From the IMG/VR virus record IMGVR_UViG_3300049198_000021, positions 1-64,000 of that record: 64,000 nucleotides of DNA; one strand, written 5' to 3'. The stretch comes from a virus. Taxonomy: Duplodnaviria; Caudoviricetes. How positions within the stretch are numbered: the stretch's first letter is position 1; each line of letters begins with the position of its first letter. Both the position numbers and the translations under genes were made by a program. Below the pieces are notes generated by a model. The model made no database searches, had not been told where the DNA came from, and saw nothing but the letters and a program-made list of their open reading frames with translations. Positions 15,083 through 62,800 of the stretch are shown here, piece after piece.

Positions 15083-15154
15083 TGTCTGTCTCCTTGTTGA
15101 CGAATCAGTGATAGACTAGCTCCACCAATTCGTCAACAAGTTTTCCAGACTAAG

Positions 15155-15310
15155 TTACTTGTTCTTCTTTTTCGCTGTCTTCTTGGCGTCCCGGAAATCC
15201 TTAGCTGCTGGGGCTTTCTTGGTTCCGGGCTTATTCATCTTCTCTCCGGAGCCGTTCTTGATACGCTCCTGCTTGGCGTTGATGTTCGCATAGAGACCGC
15301 GTTTTGCCAT
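15155..15310 (-). CDS. small basic protein MAKRGLYANINAKQERIKNGSGEKMNKPG... (51 aa, not in the ORF track)
   Basis: translated by hand; GAGGA RBS. Confidence 0.7.
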   Translation of the reverse strand: MAKRGLYANINAKQERIKNGSGEKMNKPGTKKAPAAKDFRDAKKTAKKKNK

Positions 15311-15376
15311 TTTCAAATTCCTCAGTTAGGTCAATCGAAAATGATACCATAGGCACTCTTACGAGTCAATGATCCG

Positions 15377-16141
15377 TCAGAGAGACAACCACCCGTCGTC
15401 GTCGAGAATATTGGGGTCTTCCAGCGCCATCTCTACCCGGCCCAGCGTCTCCGCCCAGTCGTGATGCATGGTGCCAAAGCCCAGTGGGAAGGTCTCGCAC
15501 TTCGGGACGACGTAATCGATCCAGCCCCGGTCACGCTCGACCTTACCCTTAAAGCCGTGCTTCTTCTCCAGCGCCTTGAGTTCCTTGCGGTAGGGACAGA
15601 CAGATGTGGACGCCTTGGGCTTTATGGCGGTCGAGGGAATCACGATGCGGTTATCTACCGTAAGTTCGTGAACGCTCTGAACCCGCGCCCGGCGATTTGC
15701 CCGCTTGTCTGTGATGGAGATGATCTCCTTGACGATCCCGCAGCAGAAGCGTCGGCCTGTGATGATCTGCCAATGATTACCGGCGTCTACGAGGAACACC
15801 CGTCCGGCTGTTCGGATGTCTTGTGTGTCCTTGAGCCATTGCGTGATGGTAGGACGATCTTCGATGTAGCTTCCAAGCAGGATTCCGGAATGCGGATCGC
15901 GCTTGGTCATGCGCTTTGCTTGGCCCCGTTTGATCCGGAGCGGCTTCATTGTGACGCCACAGTTTTTGAAGGCCCGCATCATCTGACCTGTTGTTGTTCC
16001 TTTGATGGATGCCTTGCCGCTGAGGAATCGGAGGAGACGGGCTGCCTCCCCTGTTGTCATTCCCGTAATGATCGAGAGAGCGGCCGGACCGCAATAGCGG
16101 TTGTTGTCTCCCGTGGCGTTCTTAACCGGATGAATTTTCAC
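15377..16141 (-). CDS. hypothetical protein (peptidase C39-like YCGPAAL..H fold possible)
   Basis: YCGPAALS, GNHW; headed by a repeat. Confidence 0.7.
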   Translation of the reverse strand: MKIHPVKNATGDNNRYCGPAALSIITGMTTGEAARLLRFLSGKASIKGTTTGQMMRAFKNCGVTMKPLRIKRGQAKRMTKRDPHSGILLGSYIEDRPTITQWLKDTQDIRTAGRVFLVDAGNHWQIITGRRFCCGIVKEIISITDKRANRRARVQSVHELTVDNRIVIPSTAIKPKASTSVCPYRKELKALEKKHGFKGKVERDRGWIDYVVPKCETFPLGFGTMHHDWAETLGRVEMALEDPNILDDDGWLSL

Positions 16142-16214
16142 AGACTTGTCTCCTGATTCGCTGTTGACTACGAATCAGCTTATAGGACAAATCTTCCGGT
16201 TTGTCAAATCGTCG

Positions 16215-16478
16215 TTAGTCGGGCTTCCGGTCGCGGAACTGGTAGCGGCCCTTCGTGTCCCGCTGCTCCGCGTCCCGGATGATCCGGGCGGCTTCACGCT
16301 CGCGACGGACAGTCCGGTTCGAGTATACGGTATCACGCGAACGATCCCGATCGGCTTTGTCGGTCCGCTCAGAGCGCTCAGAACGTCGATCCGGCTCCTG
16401 AGCTACCACAGGGGACGCGAAGACAGGCAAGGCAGCACACAGCAGCGCAGCGGCTATCAGGGGGTGGTTCATATTCAT
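16215..16478 (-). CDS. small secreted Arg-rich protein
   Basis: signal peptide LIAAALLCAALPVFA; AGGAG RBS. Confidence 0.6.
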   Translation of the reverse strand: MNMNHPLIAAALLCAALPVFASPVVAQEPDRRSERSERTDKADRDRSRDTVYSNRTVRREREAARIIRDAEQRDTKGRYQFRDRKPD

Positions 16479-16495
16479 GGGACTCTCTCCTCTAG

Positions 16496-17452
16496 TTACC
16501 AGCCGAAGTTTTCGGCACAAATCGGGCCCATTGCCCGGTCGATGGATTCGTTACGGGTTAGCTTACGGGCACAGATCGAGCAAGTGCCCGTCCGCTGTCC
16601 GTAGGCTTTAGCAGCAGCCGCCGGGTCCATGGCAGCAGCGATAATACGCTCCTGCTCTTCCGGGCTGCACTTGAAGCTCTTGACGAAGCGTCCGTCAACG
16701 ATCTTCCCGAGATAGCGGCGCTCACCGGCGTCGTCTTTCTCGATCGTCTTGACGTAGATCGCACCGGCGTTGGCACCGGTCCGGACCTTCGAAAAGATGA
16801 ATGCGTCGAGACGCATCTTCGGGAACTTGATGTCCCGATCGATCGCCGAAGCGAATGCCTGTTCGATCTTGTCGAGCGACTGACCGGAGATGTCCGGAGC
16901 CCGCTCGGCGATCTGACGGCGTTCTTCTTCGCGGCTGGCGTCTTGCGCCATACAGCGACGAACGGCGGCAAGCTGGCGTTCGGTGAGGAAGCCATACTTC
17001 AAGACCGTCTGGGTCATCTCGAACGCAAAGCCAAAGCCGCGCTTGGTTGCTTCCACCATCCACTGAGTTTCCGGCGTGTGGTCGTCGAACCACATAGCAG
17101 CCTTCTCGGATGTCTCCTTGGCCTTACGCTCGGCCGCCGTGGCACGCTGCTCAGCAGCCTTGGCCCGATCTTCGGGCGAGGTCTTGAAGGTGACCTTACC
17201 AGTCCCCTTGCAGTGGAAGCAAGGACCAACCGGGCGACCGGCGTAGCTGATGAAGCGACCAGAGCCCAGACACTTCGGGCAGGTTTCCTCATATACGAGG
17301 CCGCCGGTCTTGGGCTCCTGACGGGCCTGCAAAAGGTGGTTGAACACAAAATCGGCATCAGCCGACGGCTTAGGCTCGAAGTCACCAAACAAGTCGGTGA
17401 GATCGTCGTCGAGACGTTCGTCGTGGTCTGGGTTCTTACAGATGCTGCACAT
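16496..17452 (-). CDS. DUF6011-like protein with DnaJ-type zinc finger
   Basis: CPKCLGSG..CFHCKGTG; C-terminal CSICARKLT..ESI.RAMGPICA. Confidence 0.8.
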   Translation of the reverse strand: MCSICKNPDHDERLDDDLTDLFGDFEPKPSADADFVFNHLLQARQEPKTGGLVYEETCPKCLGSGRFISYAGRPVGPCFHCKGTGKVTFKTSPEDRAKAAEQRATAAERKAKETSEKAAMWFDDHTPETQWMVEATKRGFGFAFEMTQTVLKYGFLTERQLAAVRRCMAQDASREEERRQIAERAPDISGQSLDKIEQAFASAIDRDIKFPKMRLDAFIFSKVRTGANAGAIYVKTIEKDDAGERRYLGKIVDGRFVKSFKCSPEEQERIIAAAMDPAAAAKAYGQRTGTCSICARKLTRNESIDRAMGPICAENFGW

Positions 17453-17573
17453 GGTGTGTCTCCGATTCGTTGTCTATGCGAATCGGTTTAGACACACCAT
17501 GTGATTTGGTCAACTACTTTTTCCATGAGTCGGCAAAGCCGACTCATCTACCAGTTTTTCCACCCCTACCGCG

Positions 17574-19040
17574 TCACTCCTGATAGATGCGACGCCAGTA
17601 GGCAGCGTTTTCCCGCACTTCGGCCCAGTTCTGGGTGTTGTGGAGCATCCCGTTCGAATAGATCAGGACCATCTGATCGTGTCGTCCGTTGAGGTCACGC
17701 TGGTTGATCGTCTGGAGCTTGTCAGTGCCCTCAGGAGAGATCACCGCAAAGCGCCCGGCTTTGGATGCCTTGGTAGGGTCGGTTGCGACTTCCTTACGGA
17801 CATCGCGGGGCATCCCAGCGATCTGGACATAAGAAGTCTTCATGGCGAACCGGTGAGTGTCACGTTCCGCTTCGTGGACCAGCAACCCACCGCCCGAACC
17901 GAACACCAGATTGTCCACCGACCACTTGTGGTAGGTCACACGCTGGAGGATTCGGCGCAAGCTGTCCTCGTTGATGCCGTCACCTTGAATGAGGCGGACG
18001 TAATCAGGAAGGACCCGGTAGCCCTTATCGTTCACAGTCCAGCCGACAAGCCGTCCAATCAAATCAAGGCAGTGGACCACGTTGATGATCGGATCACCGG
18101 AGTCAGGCCGCACCACCAACCGCATGTTGGACGCCTTGAGCCGTTCAAGCAGGCCACCCTCGCTGGCGGGCTTGAGCCACATACCGATAGCGGTGTCCTG
18201 ATCGTAGGTGTCGATCACCACGGAGACAGGGTAGCGCCCGCCGCCGGGGAACTGCTTGTCACCGTGGACTTCCAGAATGCGCTCGAAGAACGCCATCTCG
18301 TTCTCCCGTCCCCACGACGTGGTGACCGAGTGTTCGGTGGCTGGGATCGAGAACCCCGGCATTCCGTCGAACTGATAGGCGTGCTTGGCAAAGCGGATGC
18401 CCATCAGGTTGTCGGTCACCTGAAAGTTCACGAGGTGTGCCATACCGCCGATCGCAGCAGCTTCGGTCGATTGTGCGCCACGAGCGCCAAAATCCACCAT
18501 CAGCCAGTCAGCCAGTTCCGGCGTTCCGCTCTCGGTCAGATAACGTTCGAGAAGGTTGTGCCAGCGCATCGAGCGAGTCGCGATGGTGGTCGGATACCAG
18601 ACAGCACGAAGCAGCATAGTTTCGACATAGGCAGCGATTCCGGCGCATTCGTCGTCGGTGGATTCCACCGTCACCAGAACGGTTCCCTGATCAACCACAG
18701 TCCCTTCGGGCAAGGCTCGGACGATGACCGGCAAATAGCCATCGTGGACAGCCACGATCCGTTCCCAGAGCGCCCGGTTGAACGGGATGCCGTGAGCGGT
18801 GAGTTCCGCTTCGGCTTCGTCGATCATTGCCGTCGTCACCTGCTGCATCAGGTAATAACGTAGCGCATATTGCAGACCGAAGAACTGGACGTTGGTGAAG
18901 GCACCACCCTTACGGGCTTCGATATATCCGTAGCTCTTCTCGAACTCAGGGTGTTCAAACGTCCAGTGAGTCGCCTTGTAGGTGTCGGCGTTGAGGATCG
19001 GCTGGGTCAGCAGCGTCCCAAGGTCATTGATGAAATTCAT
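17574..19040 (-). CDS. nadV: nicotinamide phosphoribosyltransferase (Nampt)
   Basis: ADTYKATH, FFGLQY, WYPTTIAT, DFGARG, PATEHS, VSVVIDTYD, RPDSGDP, QGDGI, FGSGGGLL. Confidence 0.95.
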   Translation of the reverse strand: MNFINDLGTLLTQPILNADTYKATHWTFEHPEFEKSYGYIEARKGGAFTNVQFFGLQYALRYYLMQQVTTAMIDEAEAELTAHGIPFNRALWERIVAVHDGYLPVIVRALPEGTVVDQGTVLVTVESTDDECAGIAAYVETMLLRAVWYPTTIATRSMRWHNLLERYLTESGTPELADWLMVDFGARGAQSTEAAAIGGMAHLVNFQVTDNLMGIRFAKHAYQFDGMPGFSIPATEHSVTTSWGRENEMAFFERILEVHGDKQFPGGGRYPVSVVIDTYDQDTAIGMWLKPASEGGLLERLKASNMRLVVRPDSGDPIINVVHCLDLIGRLVGWTVNDKGYRVLPDYVRLIQGDGINEDSLRRILQRVTYHKWSVDNLVFGSGGGLLVHEAERDTHRFAMKTSYVQIAGMPRDVRKEVATDPTKASKAGRFAVISPEGTDKLQTINQRDLNGRHDQMVLIYSNGMLHNTQNWAEVRENAAYWRRIYQE

Positions 19041-19228
19041 TATTCGATCTCCACGCAGTGAGTGCAGGCAGCAACTTCCGGAAGTCCTCTCATGTCCACT
19101 TCAATGTGGAGAGCTACTTTCGTCCCGTCGGTGAACAAGAACTCGATGTTGTTACAAGATTCAGCGTCAATTTTTTCAATCGTTTTACCGATGAAAAGAT
19201 CGGTCGCCTTGTGAAGCGGAATTTCCAC
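19040..19228 (-). CDS. hypothetical protein
   Basis: coupled ORF between the NAD genes. Confidence 0.55.
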   Translation of the reverse strand: MEIPLHKATDLFIGKTIEKIDAESCNNIEFLFTDGTKVALHIEVDMRGLPEVAACTHCVEIE

Positions 19229-19231
19229 CGG

Positions 19232-20317
19232 TCAGAGGACCGAGTTGAAACGAGTGGAGAAGTGATCGATGACGTTGAAGTGATCTTCGAACATCATCTC
19301 GCGGGTGACTTCCTCGATCGGCCACCAGCGTGCGGCGCTGGCATCGTCCTGACCACGCACCAGAGGCAGTTGAGTGCCAAGCGAGGTAAGGTCGAAACCG
19401 TAGGCCACCGAGATCGTCCGCTTGCGGGTTGAGCGCCACGGGTTGTCCAACAACTTCTCGCCCTTACAGGCAAGCGCAAGGATCGCCGGGTTGACATCGA
19501 TGTCAGTCTCTTCGATCAGTTCACGAAGCGCCGCCCGTTCGAAAGTCTCGTCGATCCCGACGTGACCGCCGGGCAAGGCCCATAGGCCCTCGCCCGGCAT
19601 CTGGCCGCGCCGGACCAGCAAGACGTGCCCCGCCATGATCACGCAGGCATCGGCGGCCGTGAAGTAGCGCGGATAGGGCGACTGCGAGAACTGGCCGAGG
19701 TAATCTTCCATGAAATGGTATTCCCGGCGCATCTGGTTGAAGCGCTCGGTGCTGACCCATTCCCGGAGAAAGCTGAAAGTCCCGCGAGGGAAGATCGTCT
19801 CACCCGTCTGCTGCTGGAACCGGACAAGCATCTCCACCGCATTGTCTTCCTCGGGGATGTCGTAGAGAATCTTCCGCAGCTTGGTTGCGTCCAGCGTCCC
19901 ATGCAGTTCCGGGCTGGTAGGTGTAACGCTGATCGATTCCCACTGAGGGAACAGGGTGAGGTAGTAGGACGACCCATCCTTCGAGTAGCCGATCAGGGCG
20001 ATCTCCGGATCAGGGATCGAGATCGCCTTGGCCTGATCGGTTACGCACTTCTGGACGGCCGCCACCCAGCGGTTGTCGTTCTCCTGATCCGGGATGCCGA
20101 GGATGAACACACGGTCCTGCTCAGTGGGAGTCAGGCTGGCCCGGATCATTTCACGCACCTCTTCGAAGGTGAAGGGGTTGCGGAAGTTGATGGGCTCACC
20201 GACCGAACCGACGATGATGAAAAGATATTGGGCCTTCTGGAGAGCCTGCTTGACCACAGTCATGTGACCGGCGTGGAAGGGCCGCATACGCCCGGCGAAA
20301 ACACAGATGTCATACAT
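19232..20317 (-). CDS. nadM: bifunctional NMN adenylyltransferase/ADP-ribose pyrophosphatase (NadM-Nudix)
   Basis: GRMRPFHAGH, RNPFT, KDGSSYYL; Nudix box ALPGG.....ETFERAALRELIEET. Confidence 0.93.
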   Translation of the reverse strand: MYDICVFAGRMRPFHAGHMTVVKQALQKAQYLFIIVGSVGEPINFRNPFTFEEVREMIRASLTPTEQDRVFILGIPDQENDNRWVAAVQKCVTDQAKAISIPDPEIALIGYSKDGSSYYLTLFPQWESISVTPTSPELHGTLDATKLRKILYDIPEEDNAVEMLVRFQQQTGETIFPRGTFSFLREWVSTERFNQMRREYHFMEDYLGQFSQSPYPRYFTAADACVIMAGHVLLVRRGQMPGEGLWALPGGHVGIDETFERAALRELIEETDIDVNPAILALACKGEKLLDNPWRSTRKRTISVAYGFDLTSLGTQLPLVRGQDDASAARWWPIEEVTREMMFEDHFNVIDHFSTRFNSVL

Positions 20318-20329
20318 AGAGAAATCTCC

Positions 20330-22686
20330 TCAATCGGTGGGCATGATGTTGATTTGGATGTCGAAGAACTCCAGCTTTGCAGCCAGCGATCGCAGGGCAG
20401 CCCGTGCCTCTTTGATCATCGCCAGTTCTTCCGGCATATGAATTTGGTAGTGGTATACCCACGAGGAGTTCTCCACCGACAGCCGCAGGATCAGCCGCTC
20501 CAGATCGGTGAAGGGATCGCTGAGGCAGTTCGCATAAGCGTATTCGAACATACCCTCGCAGCAAGCGTTGATGGCTGCCGGCTGGTAACCAGCTTCCAGA
20601 AGGATGAAAAGCGGGTCCGACGGATCGTCCACACCTTCCCGGAAAGCGTGATCACCGATTTGGGCAAAGCCCCACATCAAGGCTTCCGCCTCTTTGTCCG
20701 TGATCGGGACCCGCGTGATGACCGGGGCGTTCAACGGCCTTCATCCCGCTGGCCCATGTAATCTTCGAGGGCATAGCAGATGTTCCATGCCGAGTGGTTG
20801 GCCGACTGATCCACCGATTCACGGAACCGGGCATAGGCTTCGTCCACCGACTCATACATCTTGGCGGTGTCCTTGTAGTAGCCTGCCCGCACGCGCCCGT
20901 CGTCGAAAAGCTCGACATAGGCGTGTCCGATCTTGCTGGTTTTGTCGAGGATCACTCGACCAGTGCCGACTTCGTTCATGATGCTTTGCTCCGGATAAGC
21001 GGATGGGCGTAGGGAGCCTCCGCGTGGTGTTGATAGAATAGGACCGGGTGTCCGAAGGTGTCATCCCGGCGGCCTACGGTTTGGCGTGCTTGTTCACCGT
21101 CGCCAATGGCATTCCAAGCTGATACGCAGCCGTTCGCCATGACTGAGAGAGCCCCGGCGCAGAAGGCCGTGTTGTCGTCGTCCGGCCCATGATCTCGGCA
21201 ATGACAGGCAGGCACCTCGTTGTTCATCACCGCGTCGGTGTAGAACTCTGGGGTGAATCCTCCTAGCCAGCCAGCCGGGGCTTCCTTCCGCCACGGACAT
21301 TCGTTGCAGGGTGTGGTGTGGTGGAGCTTCATGGGAGAAGGTCCATCGTTCGCGGTGAATCGGCCGGGCGGGCGAACTGGCGGGTGACTTGCCCGTCCTC
21401 AACAAGCTGACCGTAGAACACGCCGCGATCGGCGCGGTTCATTGCATAAGCAGAAAGGGCGCGGGTTCGGTCACCGTAGGTGACGGTGCTGGCTCCGTGG
21501 ATGGTGACATCGGTGACTTGGTATTGACCCATGTTACTTCCTTTTCAGCCCGAGGAGTTCGATTTCTTCGTCGGTGAGCTTCGCAAGCGCCTGTTCGCGG
21601 CGCTTCTGCTTCGTCTTGATCAGATCGAGCCCGATCGCGAGGGCGAAAGGCGCAACCCGGTCGAGAAGGTAGACCTCATCATCAGCGAACCAAACAGCCT
21701 TGCGCTGCTCGACATTACCAGCGCCGCCGTAAAATCCGCGTCCGGCGGCCGCCATGGTAGCTGCCTGCTTTGTTCGGAACACCCCAATGAAGGGCCCGTT
21801 CCGGCCGCGATCGTCATCGGATTCGAAGGCGGCCCATATGTCGATGATGTTTCCGGTCATACGCGGATCATCCCCAGCGAGCGTGCATCGTCGGTGTATT
21901 CAGCGAGCGTCTTCTTTGCCTTGAAGTGAGCATCGCGCTCAACCTTGAGACCGAAGCGACCACGAACGGTCCGGAGTTCGTCGAGGCTGACGTAGCCGAG
22001 TTCCGGCGAACCGTGCCCGAGATCGCAGAGGCCGAAAAGCGTGTCGCCATCGTCCGCGATCTCAGTGATGAGCCACGTCGCGCCGCCGCCGGGCATGAAG
22101 AATTTCACGACGGGCTCAAAGGCAGAGCCGTCGGCACCGGTAGCGGACTTGCTACCATTCGCTTTGAGCTTGGTCATCTGTTCGGCGAGGATCAGTTTCT
22201 GGGCCATGTTGTTGTCTCCTGTGTTGTTGCTGTGCGAATCAGATAGGACAATTCTTCCTACTCGTCAACCGTCTTTTACGGCTCCATTTCCGACGGGAGA
22301 TTTTCGAGGACTTCCCCAACCGCCGGGATTTCGATGACCGGGACTTCGACAGTCAGTTCGTGAAGGACATCAATGTCGCAGTCAGCAGCATCCTGCCACT
22401 GGCTGATCCAGTCACGGGCCGCCTCACCACGATCGCTTTCCTGCCAGCGTTCCGACTTGTCATCGAACTCGCTCTCACGCTCCGAAGCGATGTCCTCGAC
22501 GAAACCACGGATTTCCTCCACGACTTCGTTGTAAGGCGAGAACGCCTCATTGATCACCGCGTAGGCATCTTCGATGACGCCAAGCTGGGCCGAGGTCACT
22601 TCATCCAGCGTATCCCGCGCCTGAGTCATCTTCTCCAGAAGCGCTTCGCGGCGAGCCTCTTCGGCGCGTGTGAGTTTGAATGCCAT
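20330..22686 (-). other. block of small hypothetical CDSs (20330-20734, 20731-20979, 20976-21332, 21329-21532, 21534-21860, 22276-22686)
   Basis: overlapping start/stop codons and consistent codon usage. Confidence 0.7.
21857..22207 (-). CDS. DUF2958 family protein
   Basis: PVVKFF.PGGGATWLITE...LFGLCDLG.G.PELGYVSL.EL...ERD.HF. Confidence 0.88.
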   Translation of the reverse strand: MAQKLILAEQMTKLKANGSKSATGADGSAFEPVVKFFMPGGGATWLITEIADDGDTLFGLCDLGHGSPELGYVSLDELRTVRGRFGLKVERDAHFKAKKTLAEYTDDARSLGMIRV

Positions 22687-22741
22687 CTGTCTGTCTCCTG
22701 TTGTTTCCGATGGGTTCGAGTAGGATGATTCTTCCGGTTCG

Positions 22742-23155
22742 TCAACCGAAAAGATTCAACCCTTCCAGTGCCAGCTTGCACCGGCTCTTTCGGCCGAACA
22801 CATAGGAACAGGTGTCGATCGGGAGCGTCTTGATCACATGCCCATCCCGGATAGGGTAGGTCGGGTCGTGGACAATAGCCGAGACGAGACCAAGACCGCT
22901 TGCGATCGCAGTCCGGGTGAGCATCTGCATGTGGGTGCATCCCAGAACAATGCAGGTGCCGAACCCGTGTGCTTCCCCATACCACTCCGCGAAGTGCTTC
23001 CCGAAGCCGTCAGGGTCCTTATCAGCCCGGATCACGGCCTTGCCGATGAACTGGGTGCCGGCGTGGTTGGATTGCGCCATCGCTTTGCCCGGCACGTAGT
23101 CAGGCACATCGGTCCGCATCAGGACGTAGAGAATCATTGGGTCGTCGGTGGTCAA
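22742..23155 (-). CDS. peptidyl-tRNA hydrolase type 2 (PTH2)-like protein
   Basis: LYVLMRTD....PGKAMAQ..HA; IVL; IVHD...T. Confidence 0.7.
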   Translation of the reverse strand: MTTDDPMILYVLMRTDVPDYVPGKAMAQSNHAGTQFIGKAVIRADKDPDGFGKHFAEWYGEAHGFGTCIVLGCTHMQMLTRTAIASGLGLVSAIVHDPTYPIRDGHVIKTLPIDTCSYVFGRKSRCKLALEGLNLFG

Positions 23156-24399
23156 TTTTTGTTCCTCGCGGTTGCGTCATAGGAGGCGGGTCGTCGGCTA
23201 TCTTTCATCAAGATGATACCGTGTTTCGCTGACTCCGTCATGGTGTCGTAAGAGTCGATCTGGGCTCCAACCGTCAGGCCGTCAAACATGGCCGTAGCAG
23301 ACCATCGATAGCAATCAGAGTGGCTGTTGGTTCGGTAAAACCCGGTGGCGATTTGGAAGCCCTTGATGGGATCAACAGTAACGATGTGGCCGTGCTGAGC
23401 CAGCATCGCTTGCTCGATCACTTTAGCAAGCTTCTGTCGGAGACGACTCATTCGGGCGTCGGCTTGCGATCGAACTCGTCGATCACCCCATCCCATTCAC
23501 CTTCGCTGGTGACGGTGCCGAACAGGCCATAGACGTTCGTCTCGGACTCGTTGGCCTTGTTGAAATAAGCCTCGGCCTTGTCGCGATTCTCGGTCAGATA
23601 GCTCATCTTGCCGCCTTGGGCGGTTTCGACATCAACGCGGTAGTCAGTCTTGGGCTCGGTCATGTGGTTCCTTTCGTGTTGCTCTGCGAATCAGATAGGA
23701 CGAATCTTCCGTGTCGTCAAACTCTTTCTAGCAGCAAAAAGCCCGGCTGTTTAGGCCGGGCTTTCCGCTGATTCAGCGAGTTTGCCGTTCGCTTTTTATG
23801 CACCTTGAGAGTGCAATTCTCGAATTAGCAGTGATGTGTTTAGCTGTCAATCACCTACAGGTGGACAATACGCGCTTCCGGTCCGGAGAGTCGTGTTTCG
23901 ACTGATTCCCGGAACCACCGGTGGTTAGTTTCCCGCATGATCTCGCTGGCATAACACTGCTCCCGCCGGTATTGGTCAGTCACGAAGATCAGATCGAAGC
24001 GGCTCCCGAAGCGTTGTCCCGGTGAGACCACCGCTACCTTCTTGTCCGGCACTTGACGCCGGAGGTATTCCGCTTCCATCGCGGTGGCTACGACGAAAAG
24101 GATTTTCATGCCGATCGAGCCTCCTTGAAAGACATGGCATTGTCGAGGATCATCAACACCCCCGGATCGACTGCAATCCACGCTCGTGCGCCACACGCCA
24201 GTTGGGTCCCATCATGGACAGCCCGGCTGGCCCCATTCCACGTCACCTCTTGTGCGTAGATGGCGGTGGAGTTGGGTCCATTTGGCTTGATCGTGTAGAC
24301 CGGGCGGCGACCGCCATCCTTCGCGTTCATGGCAATGAATTGCCGATTGACGTGGATGATGGCCCCCTTCGGCCCGGCTGTAATATCTCTTACCATCAT
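23152..24399 (-). other. small hypothetical CDSs (23152-23496, 23448-23663, 23855-24109, 24106-24399)
   Basis: ORF chain. Confidence 0.65.
23736..23815 (-). ncRNA. candidate ~80-nt sRNA
   Basis: TTGACA(23850)-17-TAATTC promoter, hairpins, terminator GCCCGGC-CTAAACA-GCCGGGC-TTTTT, no ORF. Confidence 0.5.
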
Positions 24400-25652: not shown

Positions 25653-25654
25653 GC

Positions 25655-26122
25655 TTATCCCCAGCGCTTTGCAGCGAGAAATGGATCGGTGTCGTCGTCG
25701 TAAAGCGTGCGCTCGATGCCCATCTTGCGGGCCTTGCGGATGCAGTCAGTTGTTCCGGTTCCGCCGGGGAATCCCAGCAGAAGTTCAGGCTTGAAGTCTT
25801 CCAACATGACGCCGTTCCGGATCACACCCGCTTGGATTCCGATCGTATCCCAGTCCGCCACGTAGCGACGGTAGCTGATCATGTTCTCCTCGGCCCACTC
25901 CTTGACGATGGCGTCAAGTCCGGTAGCGCAGCCCACACCGATCTCGCGGATGCCGCCTTCGTAACGGTGAATCCGATTCAACCGCTCGTAGGTGAGCTTG
26001 GTCTCGTTGTAGGTGCGGCCGCCGGTAACGCAGATACGTTGGCCCGGTTCCTCCAAACTAGGTGTCTGCCAGATTTCCAACCGCTGGATGTCCGGCAAGA
26101 TTGCATATTCCAGTTCGATCAC
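25655..26122 (-). CDS. SLOG/DUF2493 (YspA-like) protein
   Basis: RICVTGGR.Y, GCATGLD, ADW...G..AG..RN..M, FPGG.GT. Confidence 0.85.
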   Translation of the reverse strand: MIELEYAILPDIQRLEIWQTPSLEEPGQRICVTGGRTYNETKLTYERLNRIHRYEGGIREIGVGCATGLDAIVKEWAEENMISYRRYVADWDTIGIQAGVIRNGVMLEDFKPELLLGFPGGTGTTDCIRKARKMGIERTLYDDDTDPFLAAKRWG

Positions 26123-32712: not shown

Positions 32713-32730
32713 GTTGTGTCTCCCTGTTTC

Positions 32731-50100: not shown

Positions 50101-50355
50101 AACCGGTATCGCATTCGAAGCTGGGTCCGCGATCGGGCATCAGATATTCCCCATCAATTCGCCGATCACGCCGCAGGTGGCGACTACGATCGTGCCGATG
50201 ACCACAACAAGCGTCCAGAACTTGGCCCAGCGCTTCTGCTCCCAGAGATATTGTGCATCATCAGCGATCTCCTTCAACGAGATCGTCATGATCCCGATCA
50301 AAGAGAGGACAGTGAAGATTTTGACACCGGCGAGCCATGTCTCAGGGTTGCTCAT
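41117..50355 (-). other. block of ~25 small hypothetical CDSs, including lipoprotein 45371-45973, membrane protein 45978-46313 and paralogs 47260-47502/47489-47809
   Basis: ORF chain; lipobox LSAC in 45371-45973. Confidence 0.7.
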
Positions 50356-51044: not shown

Positions 51045-51045
51045 C

Positions 51046-52320: not shown

Positions 52321-52336
52321 GTAGGTGTTCCTTCTG

Positions 52337-53578: not shown

Positions 53579-53859
53579 TACCAGATGTTCCGTCCGAGGG
53601 GATTGTGTTCGAAGACGTGCCAGATGTAAGCCCCATCATGGATCGTGCCATGATAGTGGTGCGTGTTGGGGACATCTTCACCAGTGGCGAAAATTTCAAA
53701 CGTTCGGTCGGTCACTTCTCCGCCGTGTTGTGCGGTCAATGCCCAGAGGCAGTGATTTCCATTTGGATCGAGACCGACGTGCATGATCTGGCAGCCAACC
53801 GGCATCTGGATAGTGGTCAGGGTTTCCAACCGGTGCTTGAGGATGCGATGAGGAATCAT
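53578..53859 (-). CDS. conserved phage hypothetical protein
   Basis: MP.G..I..V......LWA......TG.....GT....VWHVFE-type pattern. Confidence 0.7.
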   Translation of the reverse strand: MIPHRILKHRLETLTTIQMPVGCQIMHVGLDPNGNHCLWALTAQHGGEVTDRTFEIFATGEDVPNTHHYHGTIHDGAYIWHVFEHNPLGRNIW

Positions 53860-53862
53860 TAT

Positions 53863-54123
53863 TTACCCTTCCCAGTCAACGATGTCGTAACCCGTCTCCG
53901 GGTCTTCCCATTCCACCCATTCACCGTCCTCGAAGACTTCGAGGCCGCCGGCGTTGGCGTAGTCAGGCTTGATGTTGTTGTTGTATTGAAACAGATCGTA
54001 GCGCGCTAGGGCTTCGATCATCTTGACGGCTTCCTCAGGGCTCTCCACAGGGACGTGGAAAGACTTCATCGGCACCTGAGGGCACCACCAGACGCGGAGA
54101 TCGCCGTGCTTAGGGTCGGTCAT
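53863..54123 (-). CDS. superinfection exclusion gp17-like protein
   Basis: LRVWW.PQVPMKSF.VPV.S.EEA......LA.YDLFQY.N.IKPDY.NAGGL. Confidence 0.75.
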   Translation of the reverse strand: MTDPKHGDLRVWWCPQVPMKSFHVPVESPEEAVKMIEALARYDLFQYNNNIKPDYANAGGLEVFEDGEWVEWEDPETGYDIVDWEG

Positions 54124-54801
54124 GCCAAGGACTCCGCATAGGCCCGGATCGCCGCGCCTTCTCGGGTAAGGGCGAACTCCTTGTAGCGTTCACCCTGACG
54201 CATCTTGACCAGCGCCGGACGACGCCCGTTGGCCTTGGTAAGCCGGATCGCACACGCCTCAGCGCAGCCAAGGATGCAATAGGTATCATCCAGACCCGCG
54301 ATGGTCGAGATTTGTGCCCGGCTCAGCTTGCCATAGATCGCCGAAGTTTCCAGAAGATGATACATCAGAACGTCCTTACCAGATTTGATCGAGCTTAGAG
54401 GCGGCGATGCCAACGAACACGCCAAGAACATACCAAGCGAAGATGTGGCCTCGCGTTGTGTGGACGATCTCGCCGGACCAGTCGAAGATGTTCATAGTTC
54501 CTCCATCAGCTTCTGACGCACCCACGCGAGGCGCTTCGGGTTTTCATGCATCAACCCATCGTCACCTTCCTGCCAGTAGTCGATCTCGTAGTTGAAGGGC
54601 GTGTCGCAGTCGTTTTCAAACTGCTCTTTCAACAGATCACGAAGCTCGTAATATAGCTTTACCGAGCGTTTTTCAGCATGATAGCACAACCCAAAATGCC
54701 GGCAGAAGCCACCTTCGGAGGGTTTTCCGGGTGTGGCCCCGCTGGTAGCCCAGTTGTGCCAGTCGGCGAGGAAGGTGCTGAGAGCGGGGCTCATGTTGCG
54801 A

Positions 54802-55254
54802 TTACTTCGACTTGAAGCCGCCGCCCGACGAAGGACGGTAAGCCGGCGCGGAGGGGCGATAGGTGGAAGGCTTGTAGGACGAAGACGACGGCTTGTAGGA
54901 CGACGACTTGGCGGCGTTCTGGCGCTGCTGTTGTTGCTGACGACGAAGTTCGACCTTCTGACGCTCGATCTTCACCTTCAAGCGCTTGATTTCCTGCGAC
55001 TGCGAGCCATACTTGTTCGCCATGCTGGGATGGTAGCTGCCCCGGTAGCCCGGATCGCGGTAGATGTAGCTCTGGCCGGACGAGTTGCTGCCGATCATGT
55101 AACCCACCATACCGTAGAGCAGGTAGTCATTCACGTTCCCACCGGCGTCGGACCAGTTGCGGCATTCGGTCGGATTCGAGGCGGACGCGCATTCGTCTTG
55201 GATGCTGCAAGCGGAGAGAGCGGCACAGGCTGCGAGGGCAATCAACTTCTTCAT
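54802..55254 (-). CDS. lipoprotein with Ser/Tyr-rich tail
   Basis: MKKLIALAACAALSAC lipobox. Confidence 0.75.
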   Translation of the reverse strand: MKKLIALAACAALSACSIQDECASASNPTECRNWSDAGGNVNDYLLYGMVGYMIGSNSSGQSYIYRDPGYRGSYHPSMANKYGSQSQEIKRLKVKIERQKVELRRQQQQQRQNAAKSSSYKPSSSSYKPSTYRPSAPAYRPSSGGGFKSK

Positions 55255-55281
55255 GGGTGTCTCCTTAGATTGGACCTTGAT

Positions 55282-55558
55282 TCAGGTGGTGATTTCTTCG
55301 AGGGCCGGCACGCCAAACTTGCCTTCCATCTTCATGACGATGAACTTCTGGCCGGGGTGTTTGATCGCCAGCCGCTCAGCTTCCGCCATGGCGAGTTCGC
55401 GGGTCGGGTGGTAGAACTGGGGTCGGCGACCGAACTTGGTCCAGACGCAGTAGGTGCCGATCTCTTCAAAAGGCGGCGCGGGGCGGGGAGGTGTTGATCT
55501 CGTTGGCGGTCACAGTGCCGGGTTCGTCACTGGTCATAAGGTCAGCCATCAGATTCAT
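55282..55558 (-). pseudogene. frameshifted gene (TTT-TGA at 55471-55466); C-terminal part belongs to the P..H.T...A..EAERLA...PG..F phage family
   Basis: AAGGAG RBS and ATG in frame 0, conserved-looking domain in the +1 frame without its own start. Confidence 0.55.
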
Positions 55559-56125
55559 AGGTTGAACTCCTTTTGAGGGTTGTCGATTTCAGCGAGAAAA
55601 GCCTTGATAGCAGTCGCAATCCCTTTGACTCGGGGAATATCGATCAAGTCACCATCGCGTTCGGCCCGCTCGATTTCTTCTTGGAAGAGTTCGAGCCCGT
55701 GGCGCTTGACCAGAACGTATCCGGCGGCCCGGTCAGAGTCAGCAACGGCTTGTGCCAGACCACGCTCGAAACCGGGGGCGATGTCTTCGAACGCAAAAAC
55801 GATAGCAGCGGCCCGCCGGTGGTTGATCTCGTCGTTCATGGTCAGAACTTCCGATCGGCATTGATGAGCGAGACCTTGGTGCCCGGCTGGAGCAGGGCAG
55901 CCGCGTGTTCGCCCACCTCGCAGACGCGGACCAAGCCGCCAACTTCGACGAGGACTGTAGTCCGTTTGATTACGATGTCGGGGCCACGGAAGCCGGGGCG
56001 GATCTCGGTCCAATCGGCCGCGTCCTTGATGATGCCCGATTCCTTGGGTGTCATGCACTTCTCGACCGGGACAGGCTCAGCGCAAGCGGACAGGCCGAGG
56101 AGCGCCGACAGGATGGCGAGCTTCT

Positions 56126-56428
56126 TCATGCGACTTCCTTCTTGATGTATTTGTCGGCGATCGCAACGAGATCGTCCCAGCGGCTTTGGTCGAACGCAGC
56201 CTGCATTGCGATTGCGTCCACATATTGATCGTCCGGGATTTCCAGAACCCCTTCCTTTTTCAAAGAAACCACAGAGGCGAACAGCCGGTAGTTGCGTTCG
56301 TCCCGCGTCATCAGCGTGCCGATGATGCAGGGCGCGGCGTTGCTACACGTCCCCAGCGCCGGGGCGCATTCGTCGAGATGGGCTTGGGTTAGGTCGCGAA
56401 GATCGATCTTGATCGTAGGCTTGCTCAT
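56126..56428 (-). CDS. paralog family A (IKIDL..LT...APC.IG)
   Basis: similar to 59534-59857 and 63052-63366. Confidence 0.8.
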   Translation of the reverse strand: MSKPTIKIDLRDLTQAHLDECAPALGTCSNAAPCIIGTLMTRDERNYRLFASVVSLKKEGVLEIPDDQYVDAIAMQAAFDQSRWDDLVAIADKYIKKEVA

Positions 56429-56817
56429 GCGCCTTCCCCCGTGTTGGGGATCATGTCGTCCAGAGCGCGGCACATCTGCCGGACAGGACACCGATCGATT
56501 TCGCCCTTCATGGCCCGGCCCTGTTCGATCAGGCGGTCCGGCTCCAGTTGGGCGCGGATGTTCTGGATCATGGTGATAGGGACAAGCACCATCCCACTCG
56601 CTACCTTAACCTGCTCGAAAGCCGTCCAGTCACGATAATGTGTGATGCACATGGTAGGGTTGTTCGGCCAATCCTTCCAAACGTAAGAAGAAGCATGTTC
56701 AGAGCGCCGTTCAGTTGAACCATCGCCCCATTTGATCTCCACATCGTGTCCTTTAGGGACCGGGCAATTTCCGGAGCCGTCGTGTGGTAGCCAAGCAGGC
56801 TCGGTCTTGGTCGTCAT
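56425..56817 (-). CDS. paralog family B (W..H.G..CPV)
   Basis: similar to 63363-63578 and 63565-63816. Confidence 0.75.
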   Translation of the reverse strand: MTTKTEPAWLPHDGSGNCPVPKGHDVEIKWGDGSTERRSEHASSYVWKDWPNNPTMCITHYRDWTAFEQVKVASGMVLVPITMIQNIRAQLEPDRLIEQGRAMKGEIDRCPVRQMCRALDDMIPNTGEGA

Positions 56818-59800
56818 TAACTGTCTCCCTGTTGTTGTGCGAATCGAATAGGACGTTTCTTCCGGTTAGGCAAGCGCCATTTTCACTGACCCGGTGTTAT
56901 TCTGAGGATACCGGCAGGGGCCGTGGTTCACCGATCAACCAGAAACACCGGGTGATGCGGGGCCGTCCCCGGCTGTCGTGACCATGGATGCGCGTCTTGC
57001 GAAACAGATCAGGAGCCTGCTCGCAGGAGTTGATGGCTGCTTGGATGCGATCCAGCGGGTGGACATGCTTGGTGCCGTGCTGGCAGGCCGCCTCTGCTAG
57101 GACGCCATCGCCCCACACCACGGACTCAACTCCGTCGGCGATCAGCAGGTGCGCCACCCGATCGGCGATCCGCACCTTAGCCACGCGGTTTCACCAGTCG
57201 CAGACCGTCGAGGAGCCCATCAGCGTCCGACGAGATGTTATCCGCCCAGTCGCTCAAGCGCATCTGGTCGATCGGTTCAGGAGCCAAGGCTTCGGTGTCC
57301 ATCATCTCATCCATCAGGCGTTCAGCGCTGCGCTTGATCGTCTCGGCGCGTTGCCGCCATGAGCGTAGCTGGTTGGGCGTGATGCTCATTGAGCCATCTC
57401 GGCGTCGGCCAGTTCAAGGAACTTCTCGAAGAACTTCGGAGCCAGATCGTCGTAGTCCGGTCGGTTGTCGAAGACCGGGAAGCCGATTGCGGTGTCCATG
57501 TGAGAGGTCATCGCCTGCGTGGCATCGTGGACCTTCATCTGGATGTCATACATATCGTCGCGATCTTCCAGTCCGTAATCCCAGCCGAGGCCCAGTCGGA
57601 CCTTGACGTAGATTTCCGAAAGCTCAAGATGGCGCTGTGCCTTCTCGAAGCCGTCTAGCCGGCCTTGGGTGTTGGACATGAGATAGCGGTGGATGTGAAA
57701 CCGCATGAGTTGCCACAAGGCTCGCTTGTTCTCGGCGCGAAGCTGCTCGATCTCGGTCATGGCTTCTGTCCATTCGTGATCCGGGCAGACTGCATATCGT
57801 ATGCGAGCAGCGTCAGCTTGTCAGCAAGACCAACCGCATCCGCCGGGTCAGTGAAAGCCAGCCACCATTCCGGTGCGCCACGGCTGGCTTCCCAAGCTTC
57901 CTCAGGAGTCTTTCCGTCGGACTCCTGATAGCCGTCGCGGCAGCCGCGAATGACGATGGTGGAGGCTTCGGCCGAAACCGCCGATCCGATCAGGATGACG
58001 CCCCCGCCAAAGGGGATGATGTGTGGTCGCACTTCGGGCTCGGTCTTGGCGGTCCGCTTCTTACGGGAAGCGGCTTCCTCGATCCGGGCCAAAAGACCCT
58101 CCGCCGCGTCGATGCGCGTCTGTTCACTCACCGTCAGGTTTTCGTGATCGGCAACCGGGAGCAGCCGATACATGGCATTCATCAGATCAGCCACCAGCTT
58201 GTTGCTGGCAGCCAGTTCCTGTTGGAGGCGGCCCGCTTCATGCAAGGCGGCAAGAAGCTCGCCGGCAAGCTGGTCATCAGTGTTCGGTGTGTTCATCCTT
58301 CACCCCCTGAGATCGTGGTGCGGGCGATGGTGGCCGCCGCACAGTAGCCTTCCAGCCAGTCGAGTGAGCGCGTCTGGCCGTTCATGCCGCGATTGAGGGC
58401 ATCATCCAGTCGTTCGGTGATCTGGCTGTTCATGGTAGTGATGATTTTGGAGACCTGCTCCATGTCAGCACGAGCCATCTTGGCATCTTCGAAGGATGCA
58501 TATGAGCCCAGCCAGATACCGTTGTCATCGACAAGATCGTAGAAGCCGAACTTCTTGTCATGATTGATGTGGATGATCAAAGTGCTGTCTCCTGATTCGT
58601 TGTTCATGCGAATCGGTTAGGACGAATCTTCCGGTTCGTCAATCAGTATTCGAACGACTCGTCCCACTCGTCATTGATCCCACAAATCTTGACCTGATCC
58701 CAGAGCAATTCTCGTGAGTATTCAGTTGTGTATTTCAATAGCTCGCAACGTGCGTGGTCGTCGGGAAGCGCACGGAAGTGCGGACATTTCTTGACCGGCA
58801 TTCGGCCGTTATCATCGAAGTCACCAAGGCGGGTATAGCAATACCACCCTTTGGGTATTTCATTGCGCTGTTCGTCGGTCAGCGCCGCGACTATGCGCTC
58901 TTCCTCAGTCATTTTGTTCTCGTTTCATGTTCGCCGCTTTGTCTTCGGCTTCCATGGATTCCACGGCGTCCTTCATGATGGCGATCGTGACCTTACGGTA
59001 GTCCGAGAAGGTCCGGCTGTAGCCTTTACGCTCGTCGTCAGTCAGCGCCCAGCGGACGGACATACGCACGGTGACCTCGTTACCGCTGAACGTGCTATCC
59101 ATCGTCCGCATTGCCGAATGCTTGTTGACCACCCGGTTCCAGCGCTTCTGAAAATCGAATTGGCGATCGGTCCACTTGTAGCGTTCGCGGACTTGCCGGG
59201 GCGGCATGAAGGACAGGCCGACATTGGTCCACCAACAAAGCGAACCGTCTTCGAGGCTTTCGATCAGGTAGCGTCGGCTGTATCTGTTACCATCTTCGAT
59301 CTCTCGCAGCCAGCCGATCTGCCACTTCGACGGCATGGCGGATTCGAGGATCACCAGATCGCCGACTACAGCGTCGCGGGTGCTGTCATATCCGGCTGGT
59401 GTGAAGCCGTTGAGTGATGGCGAGTTCTTACCGTATTCGGCGTCGGGTTCCCAGTTGCGCGTGATGTAGAACGACAGGATGTCGCTCATGATCAGGGTCC
59501 GGGCCCGGTTGCGATCGAACGGACGCGGCTTGCTCATGCAATGTCCTTTCTGAAACGATCAGCAATTTCAAGGACTTCATCCCAGTATGAGAGATCGAAA
59601 GCATTCTGCATTTCACGAGCAGCTTCATGCTGCTCGGCTGGGAGGATGATGAACCCTTGGTTGATCAGGTTTCCGATGTTGTCTTGAACACCACACCCCT
59701 CAGGGTCAGCCATCTCAGCCAGCCACTTACGTCGCGCCGGGGGAACCAAAGAGCCGATGATGCAAGGTGCAGCATAGTCACACAACTTCATATGTGGTTT

Positions 59801-62800
59801 GGCCTCTTCCAGCTTCTCGGCCGTCAGGTCGCGCAGGTCGATCTTGATGTAGCTCATGCCGGGGCTCCCACCGGTGGTGTGTAGCTCAGGTCGTAGCTCC
59901 GGGCGAGATCGATTGCCCCCAGTTCCATACCGTCCAAGAAGTCTCGGACATCCAGTTCGGTTGGGCGGGCCGGTGAGTCGTGTAGGTTGGTCTGTGCGTC
60001 GCACAAGAAGTCGAGGAGCTTATCATCGACATCGAAGCCGAGTTCGTCGTAGATCGAACTCAAGGAGTGGCGCTCCAGTGTCGGATTATACTGGTCGTCA
60101 GGGATCAAGGCACCGACAGCACACGCGCATCCATCGTCCCCGCGATAGGCGCACACCAAGCGCCCATCGTCAATCACCATTTGCGAGGGCTTACCTTGCC
60201 GACGAAGGTGGTTCACCATCGCGTCGAAGGCTTCCTGCAAGGTGTAGCTGGTGATCGGTTTGGCGGCGGGCATCGGCTGGTCTCCATGTAATTGCTGTTC
60301 GAATCAGGTAGGACAAATCTTCCTAGTCGTCAACCGCAATCTTGACTTCACGCTGGTGCGGATAGTAGAAGCAGTGATGCTCTCCGTGGACCACCGTGAA
60401 GGGTCCCTCGTAGAAGGCCACGTCGGAGTGAGTGACATCCACCCGACCGCAGGTGCAAGCTATTTGGCGCACGGGTCGAGCGGTCCGCCCATAGGCCAGC
60501 CGCAGCACATGACGGTCTTCGTCCAGCTACGCTTGGTCTTCTTACAGCTACGGCATTGCCGTAGTGGTGCCTTAGGTTTCTTGGTTGTCATGGTAGGCCA
60601 ACAGCTTCCTTTGCTATCCGTCGGCAGTCTTCCCGTGATAGCTCTAAGCCGCGCATGGCGATCAATACCAAAGCTTCCTGTAGCTTCGCGGTGATGACAC
60701 TCAACTCTTGTGTTTGCTCGAACCACAGGAGCGCTTCGGCGGCGTTCTTGTGTTTCTCTTCCATCTGCAAGCCGATGGCTTTTTTCAACCGCTCGATCTC
60801 AGCGGCTGGGTCTTTCATTCCCACACACGCATTGACGCAAGCGACGATCCGGGCCGCGTTGGCTTCGGAACAGATCGGGTCGCGGCACCAGTTATCCCGC
60901 AAGCAGCCGTCGTAGAAGACGCGCTCGATGTTGTCCGGCTGGTTGGGATCGAGCCGCCACGGCTCCTTGGTATGGGGCTTGGTCACAGCATCGGTTCCTT
61001 GTTGCCGATCCCATTGATCATGTAGCCCAGCGCGGTCGATCCGGCGGCGTCGTTAAGGTTAAGGCGGCTGTCGGCGACGCGCTTGTCCAGTCGCTCGATC
61101 GTCTTGAGCAAGGCGGCGGATTGCATGATGTCGCCACAGTTCAAGGCGAGACGCTGCATCGCCAAGACGTGCTTCGCGATCTCGTCGAGGTGGTTGTTCC
61201 AGTCGGGCGTGACGCTCACGACACGCTCTCGTAGAAGGCCAAGGCGCGGGCGGCCTTCTCGGCAACATCACCGGGGCTGGTTCCGTGGATGGCGAAGGCC
61301 GGGTTGGCGTCTCGCACTGCAAGGAACGTGCCATCAGGGGCGGAAAGGATGCGAAATAGTTCGTTGGGCGTGATGGTCATTTCGTCGTGTCCTGAACCAG
61401 ATTGGTGAAACGGTCGTGAACTGCCACGGCGATCTCGTAGGGCGTGATGTCGTTGCCGGAGTTCACCGTGTTGGCGATCAGCTTCTCCAGTTCCAAGAGC
61501 GTGGGTTTTTCCGGGGGAGCTTGGGTGGTGTAGGTTCCTGCACCTATTTCCTCGGCTGCATTCTCCAGACTGGTGAAGTAGCCGGCCCAGTAGCGTCGCC
61601 AGAACACGTCGCCCATGTCCGGCTTCAACTCTTCGTCGCGGCAGGCTTCCTTGGCCTTACCAGCCGTGAAGAGAAGCCACGCCACTATGTTCTTCTGCGT
61701 CACCGATTCTGCTCGCTTGAAGCCGGCGCGGAAGCCGTTCATGTAAGGAACCCGCGTGGCGTAGGTCGAGAACTCGCACGTCTCCATGGCCTTCGCCAGT
61801 TCATCCTCCACCAGTGAGGGAGGCTTCGGGTCGGGAGCAATCAAGCCACGAGCGCGCCACCGCTCCAGTTCTTCTTCGACGAAGACGGCCGGCGCGTTGA
61901 CCTTCGCCAACAGAGCGCGGAACTCATCAGCAGTGATCTTGGTGGGCGGCGGCGTCTGGTTCATTCGACAAGTTCCTCGCGGATGATTTGGGTGAGGTGG
62001 CCGATCATGGCGAACAGAGTTCGTTCGAGGCCGGGGGTCAAGAGATAGCTGCTCGATTTGGCGGCTTCTTCTATTGCCGAGAGGCGCGTGATGATCCGGT
62101 GACGCTTTTGAGCCGCCAAGAAAGCCTCGCTTTGCGTGTCGATGGTGTAGGTTTCTAGCTCATCAATCATTGACCAGCTCCATCAGAGCAGTGTGGAGAC
62201 GGGTGACGAATGCTTCACCCATGTCTCGGGATGTATCGCCTGCCTCGTAATCGAAATCGCTTTGTTCGATCATATCGGCTTCATCGAGCGAAGCTACCAC
62301 AGCCGCCCACACCTTTCCCCGTGTCAGCGCCGGGCGTTCGGCTGGTGTGATCTCCAGCGCACGATCGAAACCCTTACGGAACCCATTGGACCAAGGGATG
62401 CGGTTGCGCTCGTCTTGAAACACAGCACCTTCAATGGCTTTTGCGAGTTCGCTATCCACCAACGGGACAGGCTCGGGCTCCGGCTCAATCAGGCCGCGTT
62501 CTCGGAGATCGTTAAGGACCTTCTTCCGCATGTTCGGATAGGCCCAATCGTCCATAGCCTTCAAGAACTCAGCCTCAGTCAGTGGAGTGGTGTTTGTGGT
62601 GGACATTAGCTTCCGCCTCCGTGGTCAATGATATGTTGGGCTTGTTTGAGGGCGTCTTGATTGACTTCCCGATGGAGTTGCCCTTCCATTCGCAGGCGGC
62701 GCTTGGGATCGATCTGGCGGCAGAACTCCACAGCTTCCTTCACCGCAGAGTCGTTCGGGTAATCACCAGCCGCGTAGAGAAGCAGGCTATCGATGTGCCG

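Follow-up and report, generated by a model that had tools for sequence, protein, structure and literature searches.

A repeated promoter element heads one gene block after another in the first 64,000 nucleotides (hereafter the window) of the IMG/VR virus record IMGVR_UViG_3300049198_000021, a phage contig of 176,504 bp from the Caudoviricetes. With a probability that we put at roughly 0.55, the copies form a co-regulated family of host sigma-70 promoters that carry a CA-rich leader and a Shine-Dalgarno (SD) sequence and that are aided by the cofactor GcrA at GANTC boxes. Each copy would start transcription and translation anew where an operon begins in a one-way, 52-kb array of accessory genes, and the promoters would be read by the host primary sigma factor. 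The repeat is stable, orthologous regulatory DNA; genes of the array would be gained and lost at gene junctions in general and not preferentially at the copies.

The hosts of the phage are Erythrobacter-type bacteria. Its closest cultured relatives are XM05, an Erythrobacter phage of 152 kb with about 80% DNA identity in places, and vB_EliS-L02 (L02), a CbK-like prolate siphovirus (PMC9127768) whose shared proteins are about 48% identical to those of the window phage. Further relatives in IMG/VR are G001 (132 kb, colinear, 75-90% DNA identity) and G002 to G005.

Copies of the element were counted with an nhmmer profile built from the copies themselves and run on the 176,504-bp genome. The scan found 17 full copies and none elsewhere: 16 are minus-strand copies spread over 16.2-64.7 kb, 15 of them inside the window (Table 1) and one, with the T of its TTGAC at 64701, 701 bp past the window end; the remaining copy, at 3501, has the opposite orientation (plus strand). 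Two minus-strand variants (-35 at 17513 and 15136) keep the leader and the ribosome-binding site (RBS) and have an unrelated spacer. A previous sequence-only reading of the window had counted about 17 same-orientation sites on the minus strand. The 15 full copies and the two variants give exactly this number, and the variants explain both the count and its start coordinate, 15083. Searches for TTGACGAACCGGAAGATT at up to three mismatches returned 13 matches against 0.07 expected from shuffles, and the 21-nt inverted repeat returned 6 against 0 expected. Among 185,579 prokaryote genomes the core gave single chance matches only, except in one Erythrobacter metagenome-assembled genome (MAG) region with related genes and copies. 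This near-absence argues that the core is not a common host promoter. The MAG region, at 1683-6086 of the Erythrobacter sp. chromosome OZ245896.1, holds homologues of two array genes and 3-4 copies whose sequence is palindromic (TAGGACAAATTGTCCTA); it could be a related prophage, or phage DNA that was binned wrongly.

Every copy heads a gene block and is built from a TTGAC -35, a conserved 17-bp spacer, a (C)TA-type -10 and an RBS followed by the start codon. The leader is short and CA-rich, its SD is GGAGACA, and the distance from the -35 to the start codon is 56-73 bp in every copy (all 15 in-window copies were tested). All 16 minus-strand copies have TTGnC, GGA, GA and TCCTA without exception, and within the -10 only (C)TA is fixed. 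Thus the spacer is constrained as strongly as the -35. The centre base of the spacer dyad is A or T equally often. In seven copies an upstream open reading frame (ORF) extends into the -35 or ends right beside it. Comparison of the copy positions with the ORF list bears out all seven stop codons listed by the sequence-only reading: TGA within TTGAC at 22742 and 42969, TAG at 31166 and 60323, TAA at 46361, and a stop directly next to the -35 at 29141 and 58643.

When the T of TTGAC is placed at -35 and the TA of CCTA at -12/-11, the copies have the geometry of alphaproteobacterial sigma-70 promoters. No sigma factor was found among the phage genes. Consensus forms of such promoters are CTTGAC-N17-CTATAT (Sinorhizobium) and TTGACGS-N10-14-GCTANAWC (Caulobacter), and GANTC is the target of the alphaproteobacterial methylase CcrM. 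Transcription is predicted to start at a conserved CA located 11 nt after CCTA. This geometry puts the 5′ arm of the inverted repeat, GATTCG, at -7 to -2 and hence outside the RNA made from its own promoter. The weak -10 would be compensated by the host cofactor GcrA, riding on sigma-70 and reading CcrM-methylated GANTC with YGAKTCK flanks. The GcrA motif has been described as TGATTCG and more broadly as YGAKTCK (Haakonsen 2015, PMC4647560). GcrA boxes are centred at -20±1 or -30±2 in the spacer, or at +5 to +30, as exemplified by GAATC at -22 to -18 in the promoter PcsM and by a box at +12 in PmipZ (Wu 2023, PMC9976885).

The positions of GANTC were counted in 90 distinct, homologous copies from seven phages. 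At least one site occurs in 86 of the 90 copies, and the site centres cluster at element positions 17 (-19; 39 copies), 31-34 (about -5; 41 copies) and 46/47 (+11/+12; 44 of the 49 leader sites). The YGAKTCK flanks, with a chance fit of 1/8, are found at 34 of 41 sites at -5 (top strand), at 47 of 49 sites at +12 (bottom strand) and at 24 of 39 sites at -19 (again on one fixed strand). Site variants (CGAATCA/G, CGACTCA/G, C/TGATTCG and TGAGTCG) differ at the degenerate positions of YGAKTCK only. Candidate GcrA sites thus placed are found at about -19, in the middle of the spacer dyad GGAnGAWTCnTCC, at -5 (YGATTCG) and at +12 (CGAATCR, the reverse complement of YGATTCG). Both arms of the inverted repeat are GANTC sites with the flanks that GcrA prefers. 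If counted from the predicted start, the -19 and +11/+12 sites would coincide with published box positions. The outer dyad, GGA-N7-TCC, survives where GANTC has been lost and may also bind a dimeric regulator. Genome-wide, GANTC is depleted (629 sites versus 820±29 expected); one third of the sites fall in the intergenic 16% of the genome, and the YGAKTCK fit is 71% for intergenic sites versus 30% for coding ones. Finally, GcrA and a CcrM-type methylase (PF01555, 223.8 bits) are encoded in an Erythrobacter genome. A second repeated promoter family, unrelated to that of the window, lies past it on the plus strand at 72,000-95,000 (GTGGAAAAAGTGCTTGACCGAATCG...CCTAGAAACGAATCA...GGAGACAGACCATG). 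It has a leader word and the SD in common with the window copies and carries CGAATCR boxes at about -27 and -3.

Several observations weigh against a role of GcrA. The -5 site lies outside the published box positions, all positions relative to +1 rest on a predicted start, and the copies are homologous, so that the box counts are not independent events. No GcrA or PF01555 methylase was found among the phage genes; the only methylase named is a phrog_799 "DNA methyltransferase". In the L02 lineage the spacer GANTC is present in 0 of 10 copies and the GGA...TCC dyad is kept, which indicates that something besides GcrA constrains the spacer. The L02 dyad has the form GGACAAATTGTCC and that of the Erythrobacter MAG region is a perfect palindrome; neither has a central GANTC. 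Brevundimonas GcrA shows no extended-motif preference (PMC7987155), and the YGAKTCK flanks may thus not hold for Erythrobacter. A promoter scan of 15-35 kb with the E. coli consensus flagged no copy, because the -10 is poor, and found the terminator at 23.7 kb. Extension of the pattern to phiCbK, which encodes a GcrA homologue (PMC3556154), failed as well: GANTC is strongly depleted, YGAKTCK flanks show no excess (25%), and there is no such promoter. The pattern does not account for the GcrA gene of phiCbK. At the promoter of the 254-aa gene, the window phage, XM05 and L02 have hairpins of differing sequence without GANTC, with stems of 7-10 bp (-6.7, -9.9 and -14.4 kcal/mol, respectively). 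Conservation of a hairpin with three different sequences suggests that the fold matters at least there.

The phiCbK genome (JX100813) holds 303 GANTC sites versus 675 expected from base composition, a depletion of more than two-fold, and the word AGATTCA/TGAATCT recurs 25 times in it. In the literature searched, no description of positioned GcrA-type boxes in phage promoters was found, whereas a GcrA-dependent prophage-like operon has been reported once.

The same DNA could be explained without GcrA if GGA-N7-TCC, near -19 and overlapping the -10, were the operator of a dimeric regulator that shuts off the whole family jointly. This regulator would be host-encoded or phage-encoded, a candidate being the XRE/cI-like repressor homologue (HTH_3/phrog_4) at 140,715-141,467, and GANTC would be incidental or a part of the operator. 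The dyad is indeed as conserved as the -35, with A or T in equal numbers at its centre; it survives without GANTC in L02 and in the Erythrobacter MAG region, as the perfect palindrome (TA)GGACAAATTGTCC(TA), and it is perfect in the copy at 3501. However, repressor control leaves unexplained the words at -5 and +12 with their strand-specific YGAKTCK fit, as well as CGAATCR at -27 and -3 in the second, unrelated promoter family. We therefore consider it unlikely as a replacement for GcrA; a dimeric regulator on the outer dyad may still be a live rival, and one that does not exclude GcrA. Alternatively, the inverted repeat could be a functional RNA stem-loop, in the leader or in transcripts reading through from promoters upstream, that stabilises or processes the mRNA or keeps the RBS unpaired. 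The sequence-only reading had included a stem-loop in every element. Its -35, 17-bp spacer, alpha-type -10 and RBS are borne out, whereas the stem-loop is not constant, since the 3′ arm is present in 34 of 70 distinct copies from the window phage and its relatives. Copies with this arm fold weakly, at about -4 kcal/mol, and better than shuffles (mean z -1.4, single values to -4.8); the remainder show no folding (mean z -0.1). In several copies (39867, and 111047 in XM05) the 5′ arm changes register but stays complementary, and the stems at the 254-aa gene promoter point in the same direction. Against an RNA function, the 5′ arm would lie outside the transcript of its own promoter, the stems are short with 9-nt loops, and an Rfam scan of 13-64 kb matched no family. 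Moreover, from lineage to lineage each arm changes on its own, with no compensating change in the other, as seen in the CGACTC variants and in the G003 lineage, where the +12 box is present in 15 of 17 copies and the -5 box in 2 of 17. This use of different box subsets indicates that the arms are independent elements and not a co-varying helix. An RNA role for the repeat as a family is thus improbable, and we infer that the apparent hairpin is mainly a pair of opposed GANTC boxes and not a required RNA fold.

The sequence-only reading had further proposed a recombinogenic, integron-like cassette system without a recognised integrase, in which copies are recombination points where modules are excised, inserted and shuffled. 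Exchange between copies would be homologous or site-specific, perhaps through a small tyrosine recombinase of the phage acting on GATTCG-N9-CGAATC. The phage does encode a 210-aa tyrosine-recombinase frame (PF00589, 76.7 bits; 169,554-170,126, plus strand); it is far from the array and nothing links it to the copies. Gene-content breakpoints at copy-bearing junctions were compared with those at other gene junctions, a check that the sequence-only reading had itself proposed; genes were called in eight pieces of related genomes and paired as reciprocal best hits within colinear chains. The 54 directed comparisons revealed no consistent enrichment at copies, an outcome that this reading had named as counting against it, the closest informative relatives being at about 75-80% protein identity, where recent events are not visible. 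Breakpoints were found at 6 of 16 copy junctions (38%) versus 51 of 113 others (45%) for the window phage and G001, at 4/12 (33%) versus 24/83 (29%) for the window phage and G005, and at 1/13 versus 27/105 for G001 and G005. The comparison of the window phage with XM05 (9/12 versus 38/89, p=0.035 uncorrected) gave the only nominal signal among the 54. Several events do touch copies in a modular manner. The array is a hyperplastic collection of small ORFs, and the promoter-proximal 15 kb absent from XM05 begin exactly at the 64701 copy. A phage-specific gene stops right at the -35 of the 34725 copy, additional genes come after the copies at 42972, 60333 and 64701, and a unit of one copy, two genes and a hairpin at 45.3-46.4 kb is missing from XM05. 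In addition, the IMG/VR relative L014 has 3-4 tandem units of copy and gene with a 483-bp period. However, 25-60% of all gene junctions are breakpoints, so that indels touching copies are expected by chance. The modular-looking events are what any promoter-bearing junction together with ordinary duplication would give.

Stability of the copies further argues against cassette exchange. They occupy orthologous positions across seven related phage genomes, with same-junction counterparts of 16 copies in 12 cases in G001, 7 in XM05 and 5-6 in L02, and these positions are kept over deep divergence. For most copies the best cross-genome match is the orthologue and not a paralogue, which speaks for little of the concerted evolution that frequent exchange would give. 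Promoter core and leader occur separately (3501; 17513; 15136); the unit is thus not one mobile piece. Most copies have no upstream terminator, and the inverted repeat is missing from half of them. Three independent assemblies (the metagenome contig Ga0210043_1000024 and two contigs from IMG/VR), with about 75-90% DNA identity to the window genome, turned out to be one and the same relative, 99.98-99.995% identical, without any indel over 18.5 kb with 7 copies; comparison of these three yielded no near-identical relative with fresh indels. A cassette system is therefore quite improbable.

The 45.3-46.4 kb unit (45,307-46,386) consists of a promoter copy, two genes and a GC-rich hairpin, CAGGGGCGTGG-TCTT-CCACGCCCCTG, without a T run. 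Its flanking genes overlap directly in XM05; the absence of the whole unit there makes it look like a moron-type insertion. In L014 (IMGVR_UViG_3300037322_000288) the tandem units span 4684-6435, each with a promoter copy and a gene of about 140 aa. These genes are paralogues of genes at 63813-64000 of the window and beyond, which in the window phage and in G001 stand in tandem without an intervening copy. The tyrosine recombinase sits in an otherwise lytic-type genome, at a position homologous to that of the annotated 'integrase' of XM05. No duplicated modules were found within the array, only single-gene paralogues (a triplet of 100-aa genes, plus two pairs in tandem). The triplet, of about 100 aa and 38-43% identity (56126-56428, 59534-59857 and 63052-63366), is spaced at about 3.4-3.5 kb in the part of the array without an XM05 counterpart, and its neighbours are not paralogous.

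If the GcrA-aided family is real, a lytic phage would run a large accessory-gene programme through the reader of host cell-cycle methylation and not through a factor of its own. There would then be a simple link between the methylation state of phage DNA, its replication and the timing of its genes. More tentatively, and with considerable doubt on our part, the phage could tie both the window promoters and the 72-95 kb class to the host CcrM/GcrA epigenetic system as a replication-coupled timer of early genes. Injected, fully methylated DNA would fire the promoters via GcrA-loaded RNA polymerase, newly replicated unmethylated copies would be silent, and the spacer dyad would add a second, repressor-type control. 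As to gene shuffling, the negative result shows that a conspicuous promoter repeated through an array of variable genes is by itself no evidence of cassettes.

Table 1. Copies of the repeated promoter, variant sites and the gene array. For minus-strand promoters the higher coordinate is that of the T of TTGAC (full copies) or of the -35 (variants).
Feature	Position	Strand	Remarks
Promoter core with perfect dyad GGACGAATCGTCC, different leader	3501..3525	+	heads primase/RtcB block; kept in G001, XM05 and G002
One-way array of about 130 mostly small genes	13640..64000, on to 65,701 past the window	-	from gene calls
Variant promoter	15083..15136	-	unrelated spacer; 13-bp inverted repeat (15128-15140 with 15093-15105)
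Full copy	16142..16207	-	heads 254-aa gene 15377-16141 (GTG start); leader with 7-bp inverted repeat
Variant	17453..17513	-	TTGACC-N17-TAAACC, unrelated spacer; standard GATTCG...CGAATC leader and SD; preceded by stem-loop 17527-17545
Full copy, TAGG spacer form	22208..22268	-	heads DUF2958 gene; -5 box, no +12 box
Full copy	22687..22745	-	heads single gene 22276-22686; upstream TGA inside TTGAC
Full copy	23664..23720	-	intrinsic terminator 23736-23764 upstream; only clear PeSL-like (promoter-early stem-loop) order of terminator and promoter
Full copy	29077..29140	-	upstream stop abuts -35
Full copy	31116..31176	-	perfect GATTCG-N9-CGAATC; upstream TAG in spacer; 94-98% conserved in XM05 and G001, position kept in L02
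Full copy	34662..34725	-	exact match to 25-nt search consensus; phage-specific gene 34736-34996 ends flush with -35
Full copy	35936..35994	-	downstream of thioredoxin gene
Full copy	39806..39867	-	most divergent core (6 mismatches); inverted repeat in shifted register (TTCGTT...AACGAA)
Full copy	42912..42972	-	upstream TGA in -35; then two phage-specific genes
Full copy	46314..46386	-	heads two-gene unit 45371-46313; GC-rich hairpin 45337-45362 ends unit
Full copy, 'CGCCATTCTGACA' leader subtype	51241..51297	-	86% identical to 64701 copy
Full copy	56818..56873	-	-35 weakened (TTGCCT)
Full copy	58581..58642	-	all three GANTC sites; upstream stop abuts -35; predicted start codon TTG
Full copy	60274..60333	-	upstream TAG in spacer

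At the variant promoter with its -35 at 15136, the 13-bp repeat (15093-15140) pairs the -35 region (CTTGTTGACGAAT) with the leader of the same promoter (ATTCGTCAACAAG), and the gap folds at -34 kcal/mol.

The array runs leftward over 52 kb. Products named by Pfam and PHROG include the NAD salvage enzymes NAMPT and an NMN adenylyltransferase/Nudix protein, a BCS1-type AAA ATPase, an RNA ligase, an RlaP nucleotidyltransferase, a thioredoxin, a kinase, a seryl-tRNA synthetase and a DUF2958 protein; most of the remaining genes belong to no family. No DNA-binding regulator was found when about 40 array proteins were scanned with Pfam and PHROG. Comparison of the phrog_799 methylase with solved structures gave no usable match. 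The seryl-tRNA synthetase gene (52337-53578) is complete, with tRNA-synt_2b and Seryl_tRNA_N domains, and is present in G001 and absent from XM05. Nine tRNA genes lie at 261-2170, among them a tRNA-Ser gene at 261-358. Genes for RNA repair and translation rescue are found at 7686-8927, 22742-23155 and 31546-33925 (RtcB ligase, a weak PTH2-like match, an OB-fold RNA ligase and the RlaP nucleotidyltransferase); the RNA ligase (31546-32712) is not found in XM05 or in the G005-type phage.

Among known systems, integrons consist of promoterless cassettes with attC at their 3′ end, an IntI integrase, an attI site and a single Pc promoter. The window resembles them as a one-way array of short variable genes with a repeated, imperfect palindrome. 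Here, however, the repeat is a promoter and RBS at the 5′ end of gene blocks, so that every module would have its own promoter. The array has no IntI-type integrase beside it, the sole tyrosine-recombinase frame being the distant one, and the repeat does not mark gene-content breakpoints. Phage morons, as defined by Hendrix and colleagues, are self-contained promoter-gene-terminator insertions between conserved genes. The 45.3-46.4 kb unit fits this description, lying precisely at the junction of two genes that in XM05 overlap each other directly. The pattern is clear in that unit only, and most copies head conserved orthologous operons.

PeSLs are cassettes of T4-like myoviruses (Arbiol et al. 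2010, PMC2839356; Comeau et al. 2014, PMC4122927) in which a terminator stem-loop stands just upstream of the promoter (PMC4122927). The analogy drawn by the sequence-only reading is partly sound: both systems are found in large lytic phages, with a sigma-70-type promoter, an SD and a start codon repeated as a composite in many same-sense copies among small variable ORFs, and some indels touch copies. In contrast to PeSLs, the inverted repeat is here downstream of the -10, a terminator or stem-loop precedes the promoter at two sites only (23736-23764 and 17527-17545), breakpoints are not enriched at copies, and spacer and leader are conserved as well. The phage itself is a CbK-like siphovirus of an alphaproteobacterial host type with 57% G+C.

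The GcrA-dependent promoters of Caulobacter crescentus, PcsM and PmipZ, share with the copies a host-type promoter and GANTC with YGAKTCK flanks. The candidate box in the spacer at about -19/-20 recalls PcsM, and that at about +12 of the predicted start recalls PmipZ; the weak -10 fits a cofactor that aids promoter opening. Unlike these promoters, the element is found in a phage, is repeated about 17 times and has up to three candidate boxes per promoter, including a -5 site that is not a described box position; it also has an outer dyad around the -19 site. As far as its DNA allows a comparison, the repeat seems closest to the methylated, GcrA-dependent promoters of Caulobacter in its cis elements and to PeSLs in its genomic setting.

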